A DNA stretch of 64,000 nt, from contig CAVRZS010000004.1 in the NCBI GenBank assembly GCA_963725745.1, positions 538,576-602,575 on the forward strand, given 5' to 3'. The DNA comes from an uncultured Chloroflexia bacterium. GTDB lineage: Bacteria > Chloroflexota > Limnocylindria > Limnocylindrales > CSP1-4. Positions 1-42,227 of this stretch are shown here, in pieces. The notes beneath the pieces were generated by a model. That model had not been told where the DNA came from and did not search any database. It saw only the letters and a list, made by a program, of their open reading frames with translations. Positions within the stretch are counted from its first letter, which is position 1; every line of letters starts with the position of its first letter. A program made the translations under genes and the position numbers.

Positions 1-2789
1 TCGGGCAGCATCGACGACCCAGAATCCGCCAGGATCGCGATCGCCTCGTCGATCGCGCGCAAGCCTTCCGCCGGTCGCCCGGCACCCGCGCAGGCGATCG
101 CCTGCACAAACAGCAGGAACGGCCAGAAGATCGGCGGCGACCGGAGCTCGCCGTAGAGGCCGATGCCGAACTGCACCTCGGCCATCCCTTCGTCCGCGCG
201 GCCGAGGGCGACGTGGGCTGCGCCGCGCAGGACGTTGCCGACCGCGGTCCAGATCCGGAACTCGTGCTCCTGGGCCAGGTCAACCAGGCTCGTCGCGAGC
301 TCGAGCGTGATCTCCGGCTCTCGTCGCCAGAACCGGAGCAGGCCGGCATGGAACCGGGCATAGGCGGTCGTGAACGGGTGGTCGAGCGCAGCGGCGAGGG
401 CGAGCGCGGCTTCGGCGCGTTCGGCAGCTCGGTCGGGTCTGCCCAGCAACCACAGGGTGAAGGCAGACGTGGTGAGGCAGGACACCCGCGGGTCGTTGCC
501 CACGCGGACCGACTGGGCTGTCGCGGGCCGCTCCGGAAACAGGGCGATCGCCTGCTCGAAGTGTTCGAGCCCGCCTCGCAGGTCGTCGAAGCTCATGAGG
601 GTCGTACCAACGAGCAGGTGGCCGTCGATCTGCATCGCGGCATCGCCCTCGGCCTCGCCCAAGTCGAGGATCACCCTGCCGAGCTCCGCGGACTTGTCGA
701 GCTGGGCGCGGAACAGGTAGAGGCTGGCCAGCCCACGCAGGACCGCGAACTGCTGCCGGACGTCGGCGCCCTGCTCGAACCGCTCGAGCGCGCCGGCAAA
801 GGCCGCCTCGACTTCCGGGGTGAACCCTTTCGTGGTCATCAGCGCCCTGGCCAGCGTGGTCCGGAGCCCGATCTCCTGGTTGATCCGTTCGGGCGACGGG
901 GGAACGGCTTCGACCACGGCCAGCATGTCCGACGCGAGCCTGACCGTATCGAGGTACCAGCCGTGGGCATCGTCGAGCGCGAGGAGGGTCTTCGCCAGCC
1001 CGTCCAGGCGCCCGAGGTCGCGCGCCTCCACCCAGTACGTCCAGGCGATGCGCAGGTTCCCGACGTCGGCGTGGAGCGCCTCCAGGGCAGCCTCACGCCC
1101 GGCGCCCGTCAGCTGGCCGCGCAGGCGACGCGCCAGGTCCGCGTAGTACGTGGCATGAACCTCGCGAGTCCGGGACGCGAGGTCGGGGTGCTGGTCGAGC
1201 CGGTCGGCGGCGAACTCGTGGATCGTCTGGAGCATCGCGACCCGCGGCTCCCGACCCGGCCGGTCCACCCGGCGCAGGAGGCTCTTCTCGACGAGACCGG
1301 CGAGCACGTCGAGCACGTCGACCGCCTCTCCATCGACCGCGCCGACCTCGCCGACCACGGCCTGGATCGCGTCCACCTCCGCGTCCGCGAACACCGCCAG
1401 CAGCTCGAACAAGCGCTGTTCAGCGGGCGAGAGCAGCTCGTAGCTCCAGTCCATCGCCGCCCGCAGCGTCTGCTGGCGCTCCGGGAGGTCGCGCGGTCCG
1501 CTGCGCAAGAGCCCCAGCCGGTCGTCGAGCCGATCGCGAAGCACCTCCGGCGAGAACAGACGGAGCCGGGCGGCCGCGAGCTCGATCGCCAGCGGCAGGC
1601 CATCGAGCCGGCGGCAGATCTCCGCGACCGCGGCCGCGTTGTGGTCGGTGAGCTCGAATTCCGGACGGACGACGCGGGCGCGGTCGACGAACAGCTGCAC
1701 TGCGGCAACGTCGCGGATGTCCGCGGCCGTTACCTGCCCGCGGGCGTCCGGCGGCAGCGCGAGCGGCGGCACGGGGAAGAGCTGTTCTGCCCGGACGTGG
1801 AGCGCCTCGCGACTCGTCGCGAGCACCGTCAGCCCGGGGCAGTCGCTGAGCAGCTGGGCCACCACGGCGGCCGATTGGGTGACCTGCTCGAGGTTGTCGA
1901 GCACGAGCAGCATGCGTTGTTCCCGCAGCCGGTCGACGAGCTCGTCCTGGAGCGGCCGATCGATGATCTCGCCCAGGCCAATCGATCGCGCGATCGCGAC
2001 CAGCACCGCGTTCGTGTCATGGGCGCTGGCCAGGTCCACGAACGAGGCGCCGTCGCGGAACCTCGGCGCCAGGTCCGATGCGACCCGGATCGCGAGTGTC
2101 GTCTTGCCGGTCCCGCCTGGCCCGATGAGCGTCAGCAGGCGGACGGAGCCATCCGCGAGGCGTTCGGTGATCTGGGCGATCTCGTTCTGACGACCGATCA
2201 GGGCCGCGACGCGCGAGGGCAGGTCTGCCCCGGGCTGACGAGCGGTGACCAGCGGCGGGAACTCCGACGGGAGGTCCGGGTGGACGAGCTGGTAGAGGTG
2301 CTCGGGCCGGCCGAGGTCCCGGAGGTGGTGCTCCCCCAGGTCGCGGAGCCCGGCCCCGCCCGGCAGCCGCTCGGTCGCCAGCGCACCCGCCGACGCGGAC
2401 AGCAGTACCTGGCCGCCGTGCCCCGCCGCCATGATGCGGGCGGCGCGGTTGACGGTGGTGCCGAAGTAGTCGCCGTCACGCCGCTCGGCCTGGCCGCAGT
2501 GAATGCCCATGCGGACCCTGAGCGGGCCGGTCTCGCCCCACGACTCGGCGATCAGCCCGCGCTGGGCCTCGAGGCTCGCCGTCGCCGCATCGATCGCCCC
2601 GGCGAACACGGCCATCATCCCGTCGCCGGTGGTCTTGACCACGGTGCCGCGGGCTGCCTCGATCGCGTCACGCAGGATCGCGTCGTGTCGGCCCAGCGCG
2701 GCCTTCATCGCGTCCGGGAACTGCTCCCAGAGCCGCGTGCTGCCCTCGAGGTCGGTGAACAGGAACGTGATGGTTCCAGTCGACGGCAT
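1..2789 (-). CDS. Class III adenylate/guanylate cyclase domain fused to an AAA/NB-ARC-type (STAND) ATPase; the C-terminal part runs off the left edge
   Basis: Absent from the ORF track because it has no stop inside the window. Reverse-strand translation from ATG 2789 (GTG 2795 also possible) reads MPSTGTITFLFTDLEGSTRLWEQFPDAMKAALGRHDAILRDAIEAARGTVVKTTGDGMMAVF...RVRMGIHCGQAERRDGDYFGTTVNRAARIMAAGHGGQVLLS (cyclase homology domain). It continues with LLTLIGPGGTGKTTLA (Walker A) and MLLVLDNLEQV (Walker B-like). All listed minus ORFs from 839 to 2479 are in another frame, consistent with this frame staying open to position 1. Confidence 0.85.
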   Translation of the reverse strand, partial: MPSTGTITFLFTDLEGSTRLWEQFPDAMKAALGRHDAILRDAIEAARGTVVKTTGDGMMAVFAGAIDAATASLEAQRGLIAESWGETGPLRVRMGIHCGQAERRDGDYFGTTVNRAARIMAAGHGGQVLLSASAGALATERLPGGAGLRDLGEHHLRDLGRPEHLYQLVHPDLPSEFPPLVTARQPGADLPSRVAALIGRQNEIAQITERLADGSVRLLTLIGPGGTGKTTLAIRVASDLAPRFRDGASFVDLASAHDTNAVLVAIARSIGLGEIIDRPLQDELVDRLREQRMLLVLDNLEQVTQSAAVVAQLLSDCPGLTVLATSREALHVRAEQLFPVPPLALPPDARGQVTAADIRDVAAVQLFVDRARVVRPEFELTDHNAAAVAEICRRLDGLPLAIELAAARLRLFSPEVLRDRLDDRLGLLRSGPRDLPERQQTLRAAMDWSYELLSPAEQRLFELLAVFADAEVDAIQAVVGEVGAVDGEAVDVLDVLAGLVEKSLLRRVDRPGREPRVAMLQTIHEFAADRLDQHPDLASRTREVHATYYADLARRLRGQLTGAGREAALEALHADVGNLRIAWTYWVEARDLGRLDGLAKTLLALDDAHGWYLDTVRLASDMLAVVEAVPPSPERINQEIGLRTTLARALMTTKGFTPEVEAAFAGALERFEQGADVRQQFAVLRGLASLYLFRAQLDKSAELGRVILDLGEAEGDAAMQIDGHLLVGTTLMSFDDLRGGLEHFEQAIALFPERPATAQSVRVGNDPRVSCLTTSAFTLWLLGRPDRAAERAEAALALAAALDHPFTTAYARFHAGLLRFWRREPEITLELATSLVDLAQEHEFRIWTAVGNVLRGAAHVALGRADEGMAEVQFGIGLYGELRSPPIFWPFLLFVQAIACAGAGRPAEGLRAIDEAIAILADSGSSMLP

Positions 2790-2876
2790 GTCCACGAGCC
2801 CATCATCGGGCTTTCGGGCCACGCGGGGTGTCACGGCGGCGACACAACGCTCGGGCCGGCGACCGTGTGTCGCCAG

Positions 2877-3284
2877 CTACGGGAGCACGATGAACCGACC
2901 GCCATCGAGGGGGCGCACGACCTCGAAGTGCCGACGATCGAGCGTGACGATTGTCTTCGTTCGATACCTGGCCGCGAGGACGACGATCGAGGCGTCGGCC
3001 ACGCCGATCGACTGGTCCCCATAGCGCTCCACCAGGCGGCGCGCGGAGTCCAGATCCGTCGCATCGAACGATGGCAGCTCCCACGCGCCGCCGGCCAGCT
3101 CGGTCAAAGCGGCCAACTCGGCGTCCATGCCGTGTCGCGATGCGGCGAGGTAGTCCGTCTCTGCGACGACGTACGGCGAGACCACCAGCGGCTCGGTGGA
3201 GCCCTCCAGCACCTCGGCGACGGCCGCGTGGTCCGGCTCTCCGCTGTCGAAGTAGGCGAGGAGGGCGCTCGTATCGACGATCAC
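2877..3284 (-). CDS. vapC: PIN-domain toxin (VapC family)
   Basis: GTG at 3284 gives VIVDTSALLAYFDSGEPDHAAVAEVLE...LVVSPYVVAETDYLAASRHG...VVLAARYRTKTIVTLDRRHF, which is the PIN acidic-residue pattern. The start overlaps the upstream antitoxin stop as GTGA (3281-3284). Confidence 0.85.
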   Translation of the reverse strand: MIVDTSALLAYFDSGEPDHAAVAEVLEGSTEPLVVSPYVVAETDYLAASRHGMDAELAALTELAGGAWELPSFDATDLDSARRLVERYGDQSIGVADASIVVLAARYRTKTIVTLDRRHFEVVRPLDGGRFIVLP

Positions 3285-3499
3285 CTGTCGCCGAACCCGC
3301 GCAGGTGTTTGTCCGCGTCCCGAGCGATCGGCGCCTTGCCCGCGTACAGCCCGCCCTTCGGGCGCGGCCGGGCGTCGCCCATGACCGCCTGGCGGATCGA
3401 CTCGCGGATGACCTCGGCCTCCGAGACGCCTCGCTGGAGGGCAGCACGGCGAAGCGCGGTCTTGAGTTCGAGGGGCAGATAGACCGTCGTCTTGTCCAT
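3281..3499 (-). CDS. vapB: Ribbon-helix-helix antitoxin (VapB/CopG type)
   Basis: 72-aa track ORF MDKTTVYLPLELKTALRRAALQRGVSEAEVIRESIRQAV shows a beta-strand/helix/helix RHH pattern. It lies directly upstream of, and is translationally coupled to, the PIN gene. Confidence 0.8.
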   Translation of the reverse strand: MDKTTVYLPLELKTALRRAALQRGVSEAEVIRESIRQAVMGDARPRPKGGLYAGKAPIARDADKHLRGFGDR

Positions 3500-3582
3500 G
3501 GATATATGGTACCACCGGTGGTACCAGCGACGACACGTTCACCGTCCCCGGCGGTCTGGCCTGCCCGACTACGATCGGAGCC

Positions 3583-4155
3583 GTGCTCATCCGCCACGAG
3601 ACCCTCCGCCGTATCGCGTCGGGCGAGGTCGACACCGTGTTCCGCCGCCAGCGCCGGCCAACCGTCAAGGCCGGCGGCACGCTGCGGACGATGATCGGGA
3701 TGCTCGCGATCGACACCGTCGAGCGCATCGAGCCCGGGGACGTCACCGAGTCCGACGCGCGGCGCGCGGGCATGGCCCGGGACGAGATCCTGGCGATGCT
3801 GGCCGCCAAGACCGAGGGCGAGTGCTACCGCGTCCGGCTCCACGTCGCGGGCGACGACCCACGGATCGCGCTCCGTGAGGACGCGGCGCTCGACGAGGCG
3901 ACGGTGACGGCGCTCCGCGCGCGGCTGGACCGGCTGGACGCCGCGAGCTCCTGGGGCCCATGGACGCGGCCGACGCTGCGGTTGATCGCCGAGCGGCCCT
4001 TCGTCCGCGCGCCAGACCTGGCCGCCTCGATGGGTCGCGACACCCCGTCGTTCAAGGATGACGTCCGCAAACTCAAGGCCCTGGGCCTGACGATCAGCCA
4101 CAACCCGGGCTACGAGCTATCTCCACGCGGCCGGGCGCTTCTCGACCGGCTCTGA
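3583..4155 (+). CDS. ASCH (PUA-like) domain protein with a C-terminal winged-helix-like tail
   Basis: 190-aa track ORF (GTG start). The N-terminus LIRHETLRRIASGEVDTVFRRQRRPTVKAGGTL...YRVRLH resembles ASCH beta-barrel proteins. The C-terminus RPFVRAPDLAASMGRDTPSFKDDVRKLKALGLTISHNPGYELSPRGRALL resembles a wHTH. Confidence 0.6.
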   Translation: MLIRHETLRRIASGEVDTVFRRQRRPTVKAGGTLRTMIGMLAIDTVERIEPGDVTESDARRAGMARDEILAMLAAKTEGECYRVRLHVAGDDPRIALREDAALDEATVTALRARLDRLDAASSWGPWTRPTLRLIAERPFVRAPDLAASMGRDTPSFKDDVRKLKALGLTISHNPGYELSPRGRALLDRL

Positions 4156-4305
4156 CCCACGGGCGGAGTGGTCTGGGGTCGCTGCGCATCCGCCGAGACG
4201 AACTCCTACGCGATGGTGTTCCGTCGCGGTCGGTCGATCTCGCCTCACGAAGGGGGGTACGAAGCGACTACCACGGCGGGCTCCGAGCCTTGCTACGTTG
4301 CGGAC

Positions 4306-5121
4306 ATGGGCGAACCGTGGAGGGTCAAGTACGACGGAGTCTGTGCCCGACGCGAGACCCCGCCGCATAAAGGCAGTCCGGCGGTCTGGGATCGTGCCAC
4401 TCGCTCAATCCGATGCGTCACGTGCCCTCTTGAGGCATCGCCTCCGCCGCCCGCGGCGGTGATCGAAACTGGCACGGCTGGTCGCTCGGCCCGCGTTAGG
4501 TACGACCACCCCGCGGCGAAGCGTGACACCGCAAACGCCGACCGATGGGGAACGGGCATCGTCGCGAAGGTGATCCGCGCGGTGTCCGACGAGCCGCAGT
4601 CGACGCGTGCATGGGCGATCGGCGCGGCGGGCGAAGAGAAGCTGGCGGCCGACCTCGATGACGTCCCCGGCATCCGCATGCTTCACGATCGGCGTATCCC
4701 CGGGACTCGCCGTAACATCGACCACATCGTCATCGGCCCGGCCGGCATCTTCGTCGTTGATGCGAAGAACCACAAAGGGCGCCTCGAGATCCGCGATCGA
4801 GGCGGACTGCTCCGCTCTGACCTGCGCCTCACCGTGGGTGGCCGCGACATCTCGAGTGCTGCGGACGGTGTGTTGTCGCAAGCCGACGTCGTGGCGACCG
4901 TGCTCGAGCGGGCAGGTATCGAGTTAGCACCTTCGGTGACGCCCGTCTTGTGCTTCCTCAGGGTCGAGTGGCCGCTGCTCCGGCCGCCGTCGGTGTTCCG
5001 TGGCGTCAGGCTCGAGAACGACCGATCGGTCAGGCGACTTGTGACCACGCGCTCGACACTTGCCGAGGCGCAGGCCGACCATTTGCTATCGACGCTTGCG
5101 GCGGGTCTTCCTCCGAGATAG
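4306..5121 (+). CDS. NERD (nuclease-related domain) protein with a small Cys-containing N-terminal knuckle
   Basis: In-frame ATG 4306 within track ORF 4168..5121. The segment AWAIGAAGEEKLAADLDDVPGIRMLHDRRIPGTRRNIDHIVIGPAGIFVVDAKNHKGRLEI matches the NERD core as I recall it (HDR...NIDH...V.DAK). The N-terminus carries C...CVTC. Confidence 0.75.
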   Translation: MGEPWRVKYDGVCARRETPPHKGSPAVWDRATRSIRCVTCPLEASPPPPAAVIETGTAGRSARVRYDHPAAKRDTANADRWGTGIVAKVIRAVSDEPQSTRAWAIGAAGEEKLAADLDDVPGIRMLHDRRIPGTRRNIDHIVIGPAGIFVVDAKNHKGRLEIRDRGGLLRSDLRLTVGGRDISSAADGVLSQADVVATVLERAGIELAPSVTPVLCFLRVEWPLLRPPSVFRGVRLENDRSVRRLVTTRSTLAEAQADHLLSTLAAGLPPR

Positions 5122-5178
5122 GTCCCAGCTGGGGTTCATACGTCGCCCGCCAGGAGGCAGCCCCGAGGGCGGCGTACG

Positions 5179-12986: not shown

Positions 12987-13015
12987 TTGCATCCTGGCAG
13001 AGTATACGTATACTC
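12987..13015 (+). promoter_or_regulatory. Near-consensus sigma70-type promoter (-35 TTGCAT, 16-nt spacer, -10 TATACT) overlapped by a perfect 16-bp palindrome GAGTATACGTATACTC
   Basis: -35 at 12987..12992, -10 at 13009..13014, palindrome at 13000..13015. This is an AT-rich island in GC-rich DNA, sitting between the divergent VOC gene and the EXLDI operon. Confidence 0.5.
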
Positions 13016-13051
13016 ATGCGTATCCAACTCGCATGGGACGAAGGTTACGAT

Positions 13052-13576
13052 GTGGCCGTGCCGAACAAGACCATCTACGTGTCCGACGGGGACCTCAAGC
13101 TCTACCAGCGCGCCCAGGAGATCGCAGGCGGCAACCTGTCCGCCGCGATCGCGGCCGCGCTCAAGCGCTACGTCAACGTCCAGGAAGGCCTCGCTGAAGG
13201 CTTCGACGACGTGGTCGTCCGGGTTGGGATCGGCTCCGGGCGCAAGGTCCGGTTCACCGGCCTCCTCGTGGGCGACTGGGTCGACGCCAGCACCAAGCGC
13301 GCGGATCACTACCGCGTCTGGCGAGGTCGCACCGGCAAGTTCGTCGTCCACAACGAGCGCAGCGCCGAGTACTGGTCGGTCGATGCCGAGGGCAAGCCGG
13401 CCGGCTGGCGGGGCTGGATGGGCGTCGGGGACGTCCGCTACGGCGGCACGCCCAAGGAATCGACGCTCGATGTCTTCGAGTCGCTCGATGCCCTCCGCGA
13501 GAAGGTCCCGCCCGACCTGTTCGAAATGGTCGCCCGCTCCTCGCGCCTCCCGACCGTGGAGGAGCTCGACATCTAG
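13052..13576 (+). CDS. EXLDI-family protein (N-terminal RHH-like segment, C-terminal ...VEELDI)
   Basis: In-frame GTG 13052 (GTG 13058 and ATG 13016 are also in frame) within track ORF 12365..13576. It reads VAVPNKTIYVSDGDLKLYQRAQEIAGGNLSAAIAAALKRYV... and ends PTVEELDI*. A family named for a C-terminal ExLDI motif and found next to ABC exporter genes exists in TIGRFAMs, as I recall. ABC ATPase and permease genes follow directly. Confidence 0.7.
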   Translation: MAVPNKTIYVSDGDLKLYQRAQEIAGGNLSAAIAAALKRYVNVQEGLAEGFDDVVVRVGIGSGRKVRFTGLLVGDWVDASTKRADHYRVWRGRTGKFVVHNERSAEYWSVDAEGKPAGWRGWMGVGDVRYGGTPKESTLDVFESLDALREKVPPDLFEMVARSSRLPTVEELDI

Positions 13577-13615
13577 CGACGGGCGCCGCCCGGCGACGAT
13601 CTCGGGAGGCGCACG

Positions 13616-14591
13616 ATGACGGCGCACGCGATGACGACGACCTCGGCGATCGAGGTCCGCGGCCTGCGGAAGTCGTACGGCAAGCAGGTCGTGCTCGACG
13701 GAATCGACCTCGATGTCCCGGAAGGCACCGTGTTCGCGCTGCTGGGCCCGAACGGCGCCGGCAAGACGACGGTCATCCACATCCTCTCGACCCTGATCGC
13801 CGCGGACGCGGGCGAGGTCCGCATCGCGGGCTTCGACGTCGCGCGCGAGCCCGACGCCATCCGGGGCGTGATCGGCCTCACGGGCCAGGTGTCCGCTGTC
13901 GACGGCCAGTTCACAGGCGAAGAGAACCTGCGCCTCATGGCCGACCTCGAGCATCTCGGCAAGGAACGGGGACAGCGCCGCGTCGCGGAGCTGCTGGAAC
14001 GGTTCGAGCTCGTCGCGGATGCCGGCAAGCCCGCCGCGACCTACTCGGGCGGCATGCGCCGGCGCCTGGACCTCGCCATGACGCTGGTCGGCGACCCGCG
14101 GATCATCTTCCTCGACGAGCCCACGACCGGCCTCGATCCCCGCAGCCGGCGGGTGATGTGGGACATCGTGCGCGAGCTGGTCGCGGGTGGCGTCACGATC
14201 CTGCTCACCACCCAGTATCTCGAGGAGGCCGATCGGCTCGCGAGCCGGATCGCCCTGCTCGACGCGGGCCGGATCGTCGCGCAGGGCACCCCGGCCGAGC
14301 TCAAGCGGCTGGTGCCGGGCGGCAGCGTGCGGCTCGAGTTCTCCGATGCGGCGATGCTCGACCGGGCGGCCGGGGCGCTGCACGGCGCGATCCCGCGACG
14401 ACCAGAACCTGGCCCTCCAGGTGCCCAACGACGGCGGCGTGCACTCGCTTCGGGCCCTGCTCGACCGGCTGGACGCCGAGGCCATCGAGGTCGAGGGGCT
14501 GGCCATCCGGTCCGCGGATCTCGACGACGTGTTCCTGTCCCTCACCGGCCGCGAGAACGGCCAACTCGACGACAAGAAGGTGCCGGCATGA
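13616..14591 (+). pseudogene. ABC transporter ATP-binding protein (DrrA/ABC-2 type), interrupted by a +1 frameshift near 14388-14400
   Basis: GPNGAGKTT (Walker A), YSGGMRRRL (signature) and IIFLDEPTTGLD (Walker B) are in the frame of 13616. The conserved C-terminus RDDQNLALQVPNDGG...LDDVFLSLTG is in the frame of track ORF 14187..14591. That ORF's TGA overlaps the permease ATG (ATGA at 14588). Confidence 0.8.
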
Positions 14592-15409
14592 CCGCCTACA
14601 TGCTCACGGACTCCACGACCATGCTCCGGCGGAGCCTGCGGCGGATGCGCCGCTACCCGTCGCTGACGTTCTTCATTGCGGTGATCCCGGTCCTGCTCCT
14701 GCTCCTGTTCGTGTACGTGTTCGGTGGGATGCTCGGCGCCGGACTCGGGGGGCCCGGCCAGCCGGCAGGCCCAGCCGGAGCCGCCGTCGGACGCGAGGCA
14801 TACCTCGCGTACATCATCCCGGGCATCCTGCTGATGACCGCCGTCGGCGCCGGGCAGGGGACGGCGATCACCGTCGCGATGGACATGACCGCCGGGATCA
14901 TCGCGCGCTTCCGAACGATGTCGATCGCTCGTGGCGCCGTCCTGGGCGGCCACGTCTTTGGCAGCGTCATCCAGACGGCGATCGCGATGCTGATCGTGAT
15001 CGTGGTCGCCCTCCTGGTCGGGTTCCGGCCGACGACCGAACCGCTGTCCTGGTTGGCTGCGCTGGGGCTCCTCGCCCTGACCTCAATCGCCGTGAGCTGG
15101 CTGTCGGTCGGGATGGGGATGGTCACGGGCAGCGTCGAGACCGCCAGCAACATCCCGATGATCCTGACCCTGCTGGTGTTCCTGAGCTCGGCCTTCGTCC
15201 CGACGGCATCGATGCCCGACCCGCTGCGCTGGTTCGCCGAGCACCAGCCGTTCACGCCGATCGCGGAGACGCTGCGCGGCCTGCTGTTCGGCACGCCGAT
15301 CGGGGACAGCGGCATCGTCGCCGTGGCCTGGTGCGTCGTGATCTCGGTCGGCGGCTACCTCTGGGCGCGCCGTCTCTACGAGCGGGCGCCGATGCGCGTC
15401 GCGGCGTAG
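14588..15409 (+). CDS. ABC-2 type transporter permease
   Basis: ATG 14588 gives MTAYMLTDSTTMLRRSLRRMRRYPSLTFFIAVIPVLLLLLFVYVFG..., with about six hydrophobic segments typical of DrrB-like permeases. It happens to be in the same frame as 13616, which creates the artificial 597-aa track ORF. Confidence 0.85.
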   Translation: MTAYMLTDSTTMLRRSLRRMRRYPSLTFFIAVIPVLLLLLFVYVFGGMLGAGLGGPGQPAGPAGAAVGREAYLAYIIPGILLMTAVGAGQGTAITVAMDMTAGIIARFRTMSIARGAVLGGHVFGSVIQTAIAMLIVIVVALLVGFRPTTEPLSWLAALGLLALTSIAVSWLSVGMGMVTGSVETASNIPMILTLLVFLSSAFVPTASMPDPLRWFAEHQPFTPIAETLRGLLFGTPIGDSGIVAVAWCVVISVGGYLWARRLYERAPMRVAA

Positions 15410-22379: not shown

Positions 22380-22454
22380 TGGCTGGCGCGCCAGGATTCG
22401 AACCTGGAACCCCCTGATCCAGAGTCAGGTGCTCTACCGTTGAGCCACGCGCCA
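22380..22454 (-). tRNA. tRNA-Gln (anticodon CUG), CCA encoded
   Basis: The reverse complement folds by hand as TGGCGCG-TG-GCTC-AACGGTA-GAGC-A-CCTGA-CTCTGGA-TCAGG-GGGTT-CCAGG-TTCGAAT-CCTGG-CGCGCCA-G-CCA (75 nt). All four stems are perfectly paired, the T-loop is TTCGAAT, and the anticodon loop is CU-CUG-GA. Confidence 0.9.
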
Positions 22455-42016: not shown

Positions 42017-42065
42017 CCCGGCATCGTACTCACGGGGCGGGTGTAAACTCGGCCGACAATCGAAG

Positions 42066-42160
42066 ATCCGCCTCCGGGGAGCGCGCGAGCGCTGAGAGTG
42101 TGGTGCAGACCACAGACCCGCGGAACCTGATCCGGTTCGTACCGGTGTAGGAAGCAGGCC
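42066..42160 (+). promoter_or_regulatory. TPP (THI-box) riboswitch
   Basis: GGGGAGC..GCGCUGAGA..(hairpin GUGGUGCAGACCAC)..ACCC..GCGGAACCUGAUCCGGUUCGUACCGGUGUAGGAAGC contains the hallmark CUGAGA, ACCC and ACCUGAUC.GG.U...ACC.G.G.AGGnA elements in the right order. It is followed by an 11-bp GC hairpin (42174..42199) plus TTCGTGCTT, and by GGAGG 12 nt before the ykoE ATG. Confidence 0.85.
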
Positions 42161-42227
42161 CGCAGCCACAGCACGCCGTCCCCGGCATCGGGGGCGGCGT
42201 TCGTGCTTGACGGAGGTCCAGGGATCG

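Follow-up and report, generated by a model that had tools for sequence, protein, structure and literature searches.

Local repressors of DrrAB-type ABC-2 exporters usually belong to the TetR family, an example being RaaS, which is associated with Rv1218c/Rv1217c in M. tuberculosis. Plasmid and phage repressors of the ribbon-helix-helix (RHH) class, among them CopG, Arc and Mnt, control their own operons, and translation can be coupled from a leader open reading frame (ORF) to the following gene through overlapping stop and start codons. In E. coli, ambiguous start sites of the form AUGUG or GUGUG allow initiation in two frames (Kohl et al., 2022, PMC9841429). Here we analyze, against this background, an operon at positions 12987–15409 of a 64,000-nucleotide (nt) stretch of DNA from an uncultured Chloroflexia bacterium (assembly GCA_963725745.1, contig CAVRZS010000004.1, positions 538,576 to 602,575 of the forward strand; hereafter the window), in which a gene of the EXLDI family precedes genes for a DrrA-like ATPase and a DrrB-like permease. 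Coordinates are those of the window unless another locus is named, and the genes, promoter elements and ribosome-binding sites of the operon all lie on its plus strand.

The reading that we prefer, with a probability of roughly 0.7 based on sequence comparison and structure modeling, is that of a self-repressed efflux operon, in which the EXLDI protein would be an RHH repressor acting at a two-box operator and translation in this clade would be split between two start codons. That EXLDI is an RHH autorepressor of a DrrAB-like pump had been proposed in a first-pass annotation of the sequence, and the proposal gains computational support from the present analysis; missing from it were the second operator box, the better-supported start codon and an overlapping +1 frame. 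A literature search for EXLDI proteins, TIGR04342 and the operator sequence in bacteria found nothing relevant.

The two-box motif at the EXLDI promoter

The sequence GAGTATACGTATACTC at 13000–13015 is, as the first-pass annotation had it, a perfect palindrome of 16 base pairs (bp), and the AT island described there within DNA of about 70% GC is likewise real: the GC content of the window is 71.1%, and the palindrome falls inside its longest AT-rich island, 12997–13024. Perfect palindromes of at least 16 bp occur in the window at chance level (4 observed, about 5 in dinucleotide shuffles); one with a GC content of at most 40% appears in none of 300 dinucleotide shuffles of the window. The promoter elements also lie where they had been placed, with a −35 element TTGCAT (12987–12992), a 16-nt spacer, and a −10 element TATACT (13009–13014) that overlaps the first box of the motif described below. 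The description of this promoter as near-consensus goes too far for the −35 element, which agrees with TTGACA at only 3 of 6 positions, and a consensus promoter scan gives no call. The −10 element agrees with the actinobacterial TANNNT pattern and is invariant in most of the loci compared, and the TTG of the −35 element is kept 16–17 nt from it across 69 distinct loci.

These comparisons cover 80 metagenome loci (62–79% identity), one locus from a Chloroflexota metagenome-assembled genome (MAG), and 12 loci of distant homologues. A single-protein scan of genome contigs gave one locus, and the footprinting rests on the metagenome loci together with the contigs encoding distant homologues; the related loci are mostly short metagenome contigs, and the taxa named among them are a Chloroflexota MAG and Nocardia farcinica. 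Over the 69 distinct close loci the consensus reads cTTGnnn-N13-TATACGTATACT-NN-TACGTATA. The 12-mer TATACGTATACT, which occupies 13003–13014 in the window, is perfect in 53 of these loci and lies at a nearly constant distance of 42–44 nt from the GTG start codon of EXLDI. As a candidate operator the palindrome is thus upheld in its core but not in the outer G-A-G / C-T-C arms of the 16-mer, which are not conserved.

The conserved region contains two boxes. Box 1 (TATACGTATA, 13003–13012, dyad C13007/G13008) is the conserved core of the palindrome and has near-maximal information content, and box 2 (TGCGTATCC, 13017–13025, dyad C13019/G13020; consensus TACGTATA[CG]) is conserved in the main clade and spans the predicted transcription start site (TSS) at about 13020–13022. 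The CG dyads of the two boxes are 12 bp apart, a layout that recurs in N. farcinica and in loci L085, L087, L089 and L097. The exact 10-mer TATACGTATA occurs once in the window, even with two mismatches allowed, and once in each related locus, every time upstream of the EXLDI gene.

Footprinting in other genomes, which had been suggested as a check on the palindrome, also succeeds at greater distance, since a TATACGTA-type motif is found upstream of all 12 distant homologues (33–55% identity, GC 0.41–0.72), with the exact 8-mer in 11 of the 12. It reads TATACGTACACTTATACG in L085 (34% identity) and ACGTATACGTAT in L087 (40%), where it lies 3′ of a TTGACA-17-TATAGT promoter; in L083 (33%, GC 0.48) it stands between −35 and −10, about 200 nt 5′ of the EXLDI start codon. 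The motif is present as well in L089 (48%), L090 (47%), L096 (51%) and L097 (49%), and in L091 and L092 (44%), which come from genomes of 41–43% GC. In N. farcinica NCTC11134 (L094, NZ_LN868939.1, 885334–885831; 42%) the arrangement is TTGCGT-CTACGTATACATCTACA-TATAGT, and the −10 element ends 6 nt before the ATG, so that the EXLDI homologue is apparently leaderless. L088 (55%) carries two copies, the first preceding EXLDI and the second a separately transcribed ABC ATPase gene, whose own promoter, TTGCGC-17-CATACT at 700–790 of that locus, bears GTATACGCATACT-CA-TACCTGTAC; this second copy suggests that the pump genes are direct targets even where they are transcribed apart. Two further observations concern these loci. 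In the region 150–400 of L083, the long leader contains several inverted repeats (e.g., TGGTTCA...TGAACCA), and the gene order there is EXLDI-TetR-ABC, and the N. farcinica record carries no annotation of the EXLDI homologue in the collection searched.

Depending on the lineage, the motif sits in the spacer, on the −10 element, or downstream of it, while its sequence and the layout of two boxes about 12 bp apart stay the same, and this variable position relative to −35 and −10 argues for an operator rather than a part of the promoter. The site stands at the promoter of the EXLDI gene itself in the 69 close loci and in every one of the 12 distant ones, as expected for the cognate site of an autoregulated repressor. 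The same data bear on the alternative that the motif serves some other, unlinked regulator as its operator, or is a specialized promoter element, and that EXLDI does not bind DNA. This would fit the overlap of the motif with the −10 element in the main clade and the sub-threshold scores of the RHH profile matches to EXLDI. It is nevertheless distinctly unlikely, because the motif tracks EXLDI genes over 33–100% identity and 41–72% GC whatever their neighbors, occupies no fixed place in the promoter, and is absent elsewhere in the 64 kb and in the related loci. Moreover, no conserved protein of the module other than EXLDI is a candidate for DNA binding, and no other regulator is conserved beside the module.

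In the autorepression reading, two EXLDI dimers would occupy the two palindromic TAyACGTATA-type boxes with their dyads 12 bp apart. Since box 1 covers the −10 element and box 2 the start site, RNA polymerase would be occluded, and release of the repressor would allow transcription of EXLDI-drrA-drrB. A riboswitch or attenuator in the main-clade leader was considered and rejected, as Rfam and RNAalifold applied to the 5′ leader return no RNA family and no conserved structure.

The EXLDI protein and its predicted fold

The EXLDI gene (13058–13576) encodes 172 residues between a GTG start and a TAG stop codon. Its assignment to the EXLDI family, made earlier from the terminal VEELDI, is confirmed by TIGR04342 (E = 7.9e-21; 74.7 bits, cutoff 32): VEELDI is followed directly by the stop codon, and conservation is at least 90% at E168, L170, D171 and I172. 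The family comprises at least 1656 sequences in public data. The TIGR04342 model covers residues 51–174 only and leaves the conserved N-terminus outside, and the full-length protein gives no match above threshold in Pfam.

Residues 1–46 (13058–13195) are the most conserved part of the family, with P2, K4, T5, I6, Y7, A19, Q20, L27 and L35 conserved in at least 90% of sequences and S28 and A34 invariant. The AlphaFold2 model built from 45 diverse sequences (predicted local distance difference test, pLDDT, 93.4) has residues 1–9 extended, helices at 10–22 and 27–46, and then a beta-rich domain; a model of the isolated N-terminal region has a pLDDT of 89. The order of elements is that of an RHH domain, namely the segment KTIYVSD, the first helix, a GGNLS turn of the G-x-S type containing the invariant S28, and the second helix, in agreement with the RHH-like N-terminus that had been read from the sequence. 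Foldseek searches with the isolated 52-residue model return RHH proteins in 7 of 10 matches (CopG, ParD2, NikA, VapB, AmrZ and NikR), the best being the CopG–DNA complex 1ea4_B (template modeling (TM) scores 0.59/0.71, root mean square deviation 1.7 Å). Sequence comparisons point the same way. Weak Pfam matches among 38 family members are to CcdA (16/38), VapB (7/38), PSK_trans_fac (4/38) and RHH_1 (2/38, best E = 1.9e-4), and the best single-stretch PDB sequence match is a collinear one to the CopG-family RHH protein 9kkd_A (E = 0.017), with a further match to 2k6l_A, which we take to be an RHH protein. Comparison by hhalign with CopG gives a probability of 70% and E = 4e-5 over 40 collinear columns, and the alignment places N3, T5 and Y7 at the base-contacting positions of CopG, which makes them the predicted base-reading residues of EXLDI. 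As a prediction from sequence and models, the RHH nature of the N-terminal domain is well supported.

The C-terminal two thirds had been described as beta-rich, and the model agrees, with residues 50–172 (13205–13573) forming a beta-rich domain of pLDDT 93 that ends in the VEELDI tail. In Foldseek searches of the full-length model against PDB and BFVD no significant match is obtained, and the C-terminal domain resembles nothing known there. The top match to the full-length model is an unnamed 156-residue viral protein, BFVD entry A0A6G6XIE7 (E = 2.7e-3, probability 1.00, 169 columns, TM about 0.4), which may be a phage-borne relative.

As a two-domain repressor, EXLDI would dimerize through its N-terminal 46 residues, and its C-terminal domain, a putative sensor or partner-binding module, would together with the ExLDI tail receive the inducing signal, either a pump substrate or a protein partner. 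A rival reading holds that EXLDI is an antitoxin-like or partner-switching RHH protein, whose C-terminal domain and tail bind not a small molecule but a protein such as the C-terminal domain of DrrA, so that repression would be controlled by transporter activity and not by free drug. The commonest weak Pfam matches are indeed to antitoxin families (CcdA and VapB), the conservation of E168, L170, D171 and I172 at the extreme C-terminus is typical of docking tails, and the gene is tightly linked to DrrA-type ATPases. Against this, no toxin-like gene lies nearby, the C-terminal part is a folded domain of 120 residues predicted with high pLDDT and not a disordered antitoxin tail, and three homologues (L085, L086 and L097) have no adjacent ABC gene. 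We regard this rival as rather unlikely. In one of these three, L097 (49% identity), an EXLDI homologue with a two-box operator stands, within the region 2501–5160, upstream of Ada/AlkA-like and Ogt-like DNA-alkylation repair genes and not of an ABC pump, a context which hints that the EXLDI family may respond to DNA-targeting agents.

Two start codons and an open +1 frame

The 174-residue protein reported initially begins at GTG 13052, an in-frame codon that does exist in the window but is found in only about half of the loci, whereas the family-wide start is GTG 13058, giving 172 residues. Among 441 representatives chosen at 50% identity, nearly all full-length homologues start at the residue corresponding to GTG 13058, with MPNKTIYV, and the codon at this position is [GA]TG in every locus. 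In 26 loci a stop interrupts frame 0 within 45 nt 5′ of the GTG, and 19 loci lack any alternative in-frame start in that stretch. The annotated start at ATG 13016, which would give 186 residues, was rejected: it lies 5′ of the predicted TSS, is not conserved, and would be read in a frame that is closed in those 26 loci. Gene callers often extend the EXLDI gene to upstream starts in this way, as in the window with 186 residues against the family-wide 172.

In all 81 loci of the clade an ATG, at 13050 in the window, lies 8 nt 5′ of the EXLDI GTG and out of frame with it (+1). The Shine-Dalgarno (SD) sequence GAAGG (13040–13044), whose core is present in 68 of 74 loci, is separated from this ATG by 5 nt (54 of 74 loci) and hence from the GTG by about 13 nt; the start site itself reads AUGUG in 36 of 75 loci. 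From the ATG, the +1 frame is free of stops for 187–193 codons across the whole EXLDI gene and the following spacer. In the window it forms an ORF of 189 codons (13050–13619) whose stop codon TGA (13617–13619) overlaps the drrA start codon ATG at 13616, and across loci it ends on the ATPase start codon in 71 of 72 cases (ATGA in 63, GTGA in 8). The drrA-drrB junction is also ATGA, which makes the operon a chain of stop–start overlaps beginning with the +1 frame. The overlapping +1 frame is a new finding that goes beyond the earlier reading of this sequence, and our literature search brought up no description of a frame of gene length that is conserved solely for being open.

One further observation concerns the leader. 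The sequence TA[CG]GATG (TTACGATG or CTAGGATG; 13045–13052 in the window, with equivalents in L001–L081), into which the +1 start codon falls, hardly varies in an otherwise variable leader. It is similar to half an operator box (TACG), and its constancy is not accounted for by SD spacing alone.

The openness of the frame is maintained by codon choice. With L082 and L095, which contain indel errors, left out of the frame statistics, no +1 stop occurs inside EXLDI in 75 of 75 distinct genes, whereas the adjacent ATPase genes contain 2.86 +1 stops per 100 codons, and not one of 6008 windows of 172 codons in them is stop-free. Leu and Val codons that precede a codon starting with A end in C in 117 of 117 cases, at 23 codon positions, against about 50% G in drrA, and Met followed by such a codon is seen in 0 of 152 cases in EXLDI compared with 93 of 260 in drrA. 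The spacer between EXLDI and drrA measures 15, 30, 33, 36, 39 or 42 nt, in every case divisible by 3, and its sequence varies strongly; it never contains a +1 stop, and frame-0 stops are found in it in three loci (L027, L038 and L044). Grouping at 85% nucleotide identity yields 42 clusters of EXLDI genes, and four-fold degenerate sites are near saturation, so that the loci are largely independent at synonymous sites.

It might be argued that the open frame is a functionless by-product of GC-rich codon usage and shared ancestry. Long ORFs in alternative frames are common in DNA of 71% GC, and only 0.6–0.8 +1 stops per gene are expected from the EXLDI amino acid sequence and local codon usage. 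This explanation is hardly credible in view of the uninterrupted frame in every gene despite near-saturated synonymous sites and 42 clusters, the exclusive use of C at the critical third positions, the lack of any comparable open window in neighboring drrA, the constant periodicity of the spacer, and the placement of the stop codon on the drrA start. Homologues outside the clade also speak against it: they start at an ATG with an ordinary SD and lack the upstream ATG, and between 1 and 8 +1 stops are present in 8 of 10 such loci.

Four-fold sites of EXLDI, which are second codon positions in the +1 frame, diverge about as much as those of drrA (0.43 versus 0.46), indicating that the amino acid sequence of the +1 frame is not under purifying selection, but that its openness, start and end are. 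A functional overprinted protein of 189 residues, which would explain the conserved ATG, the well-placed SD and the full-length open frame, is very improbable on these grounds. The part of the +1 product encoded by the spacer is conserved in neither sequence nor length, and the product, a low-complexity sequence with a high content of Ser, Arg, Pro and Ala, has no match among the PHROG or PADLOC families.

Two other mechanisms were considered and rejected. Programmed frameshifting that would bring ribosomes from ATG 13050 into the EXLDI frame lacks a conserved slippery site, is at odds with the conservation of [GA]TG at the frame-0 start, and, if it occurred early, would leave an open +1 frame of 189 codons unexplained. 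Stop readthrough producing an EXLDI–DrrA fusion would suit the fact that both genes share one frame in every locus, but it conflicts with the frame-0 stops in the spacers of the three loci named above, whereas the +1 frame of the spacer never has one.

The translational part of the preferred reading, which applies to the clade of at least 62% identity, would start from the single SD, which would serve ATG 13050 at optimal spacing and GTG 13058 at poor spacing. The majority of ribosomes would initiate at ATG 13050, cross the repressor gene in the +1 frame, terminate on the ATGA of drrA and re-initiate there, and a minority would start at GTG 13058 and make the repressor. Translation of the +1 frame would in this way keep the mRNA covered, couple the pump to the strong start, keep the repressor at a low level and the pump at a high one, and prevent polarity on the pump genes. 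That the 189-codon frame is a 'ribosome conduit', kept open for being translated, which sets the repressor-to-pump ratio and shields the pump genes from polarity, is a tentative interpretation to which we give slightly less than even odds. Still less likely is induction by a drug that binds the operator DNA itself; such a mechanism could work, because the CpG steps of the operator flanked by A/T are preferred intercalation sites of anthracycline-type drugs.

Pump genes, neighborhood and relation to known systems

The ATPase gene (13616–14591) is preceded by its own SD, GGGAGG (13604–13609), and a G-rich SD lies about 6–8 nt before the ATGA in nearly all spacers. It matches TIGR01188 drrA (E = 5e-90) with a score of 301.8 bits, just below the cutoff of 312.45, because the gene is frameshifted at about 14386–14391: in tblastn comparisons, intact homologues align in one frame up to 14386 and in the next frame from 14391. 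As a result, the ORF 13616–15409 reads as a 597-residue ATPase–permease fusion without the C-terminal domain of the ATPase. The frameshift could be a sequencing indel in a CCC run or could mark a real pseudogene. The permease gene (14588–15409), whose ATG overlaps the ATPase stop codon, matches PF01061 ABC2_membrane (E = 5.8e-23) and scores under the drrB subfamily cutoffs.

A VOC/glyoxalase gene lies divergently upstream of the operon. Upstream neighbors are not conserved, since the VOC gene recurs in a single locus and the TetR and MFS genes do not recur at all, whereas drrB is kept in 31 loci, and an ABC ATPase gene follows EXLDI in most of the distant loci as well.

Several points weigh against the preferred reading. 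The Foldseek E-values for the 52-residue domain are not significant (at least 2), a weakness attributable to so short a query; the Pfam RHH matches lie below the family thresholds; and the N-terminal strand is modeled as extended coil in the monomer prediction. As to translation, the distant clades with +1 stops and a normal ATG indicate that the system can do without the overlapping frame, and drrA, having its own SD, has no obvious need for coupling. Finally, given the frameshift in the ATPase gene, the copy of the operon in the window may be non-functional.

Some other features of the window deserve mention. A perfect 20-bp palindrome, TGGTACCACCGGTGGTACCA, at 3507–3526 in a locally AT-richer stretch follows a promoter-like TTG...ATATGG region; an ORF begins about 57 nt downstream of it, at 3583, and the palindrome probably serves another regulator as its operator. 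The window also contains a tRNA-Gln (CTG) gene at 22380–22454 on the minus strand and a thiamine pyrophosphate (TPP) riboswitch (61 bits) at 42065–42171 on the plus strand, both unrelated to the EXLDI operon.

If the preferred reading holds, a family annotated only by its C-terminal motif would gain a testable function, namely that of an RHH repressor with a defined operator and with the ABC-2 efflux pumps of Actinomycetota and relatives as its target. The system would also offer a ready-made promoter–operator pair, and the orphan C-terminal domain may represent a new sensor fold for pump substrates. The +1 frame would be a natural case of selection on translation itself and not on its product, and it bears on the protein ratios of operons and on the interpretation of alternative-frame ORFs in ribosome profiling.

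Among known repressors, CopG, Arc and Mnt are the closest in their DNA-binding part. Like them, EXLDI is predicted to have a strand followed by helices A and B with a G-x-S/T turn, its alignment to CopG is collinear, and the CopG–DNA complex is its top structural match; like theirs, its proposed binding sites are short palindromic subsites about one helical turn apart over a promoter, with the repressor's own operon as the target. Those proteins, however, have 45–83 residues and no large C-terminal fold, whereas EXLDI carries a 120-residue beta-rich domain and a conserved tail, and its operator TATACGTATA differs from theirs. The combination of an N-terminal RHH domain with a signal-sensing part, controlling a transporter or pathway operon, is reminiscent of NikR and MetJ, and NikR is among the structural matches, but neither the ACT-like nickel domain of NikR nor any solved structure shows detectable similarity to the C-terminal domain of EXLDI. 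With TetR-type exporter repressors such as RaaS the system shares a small regulator gene adjoining a two-gene ABC-2 exporter and a presumed derepression by drugs; it differs from them in that the predicted DNA-binding fold is RHH and not helix-turn-helix, and in that the regulator gene is the first cistron of the pump operon and not divergent from it. In its leader, the EXLDI operon resembles the ambiguous-start systems, with one SD that would serve two close starts in different frames and an ATGA that would hand ribosomes to the next gene. Unlike those systems, its +1 frame extends for 189 codons over a complete gene and is kept open by selection at synonymous sites in dozens of diverged lineages, while its product is not conserved.

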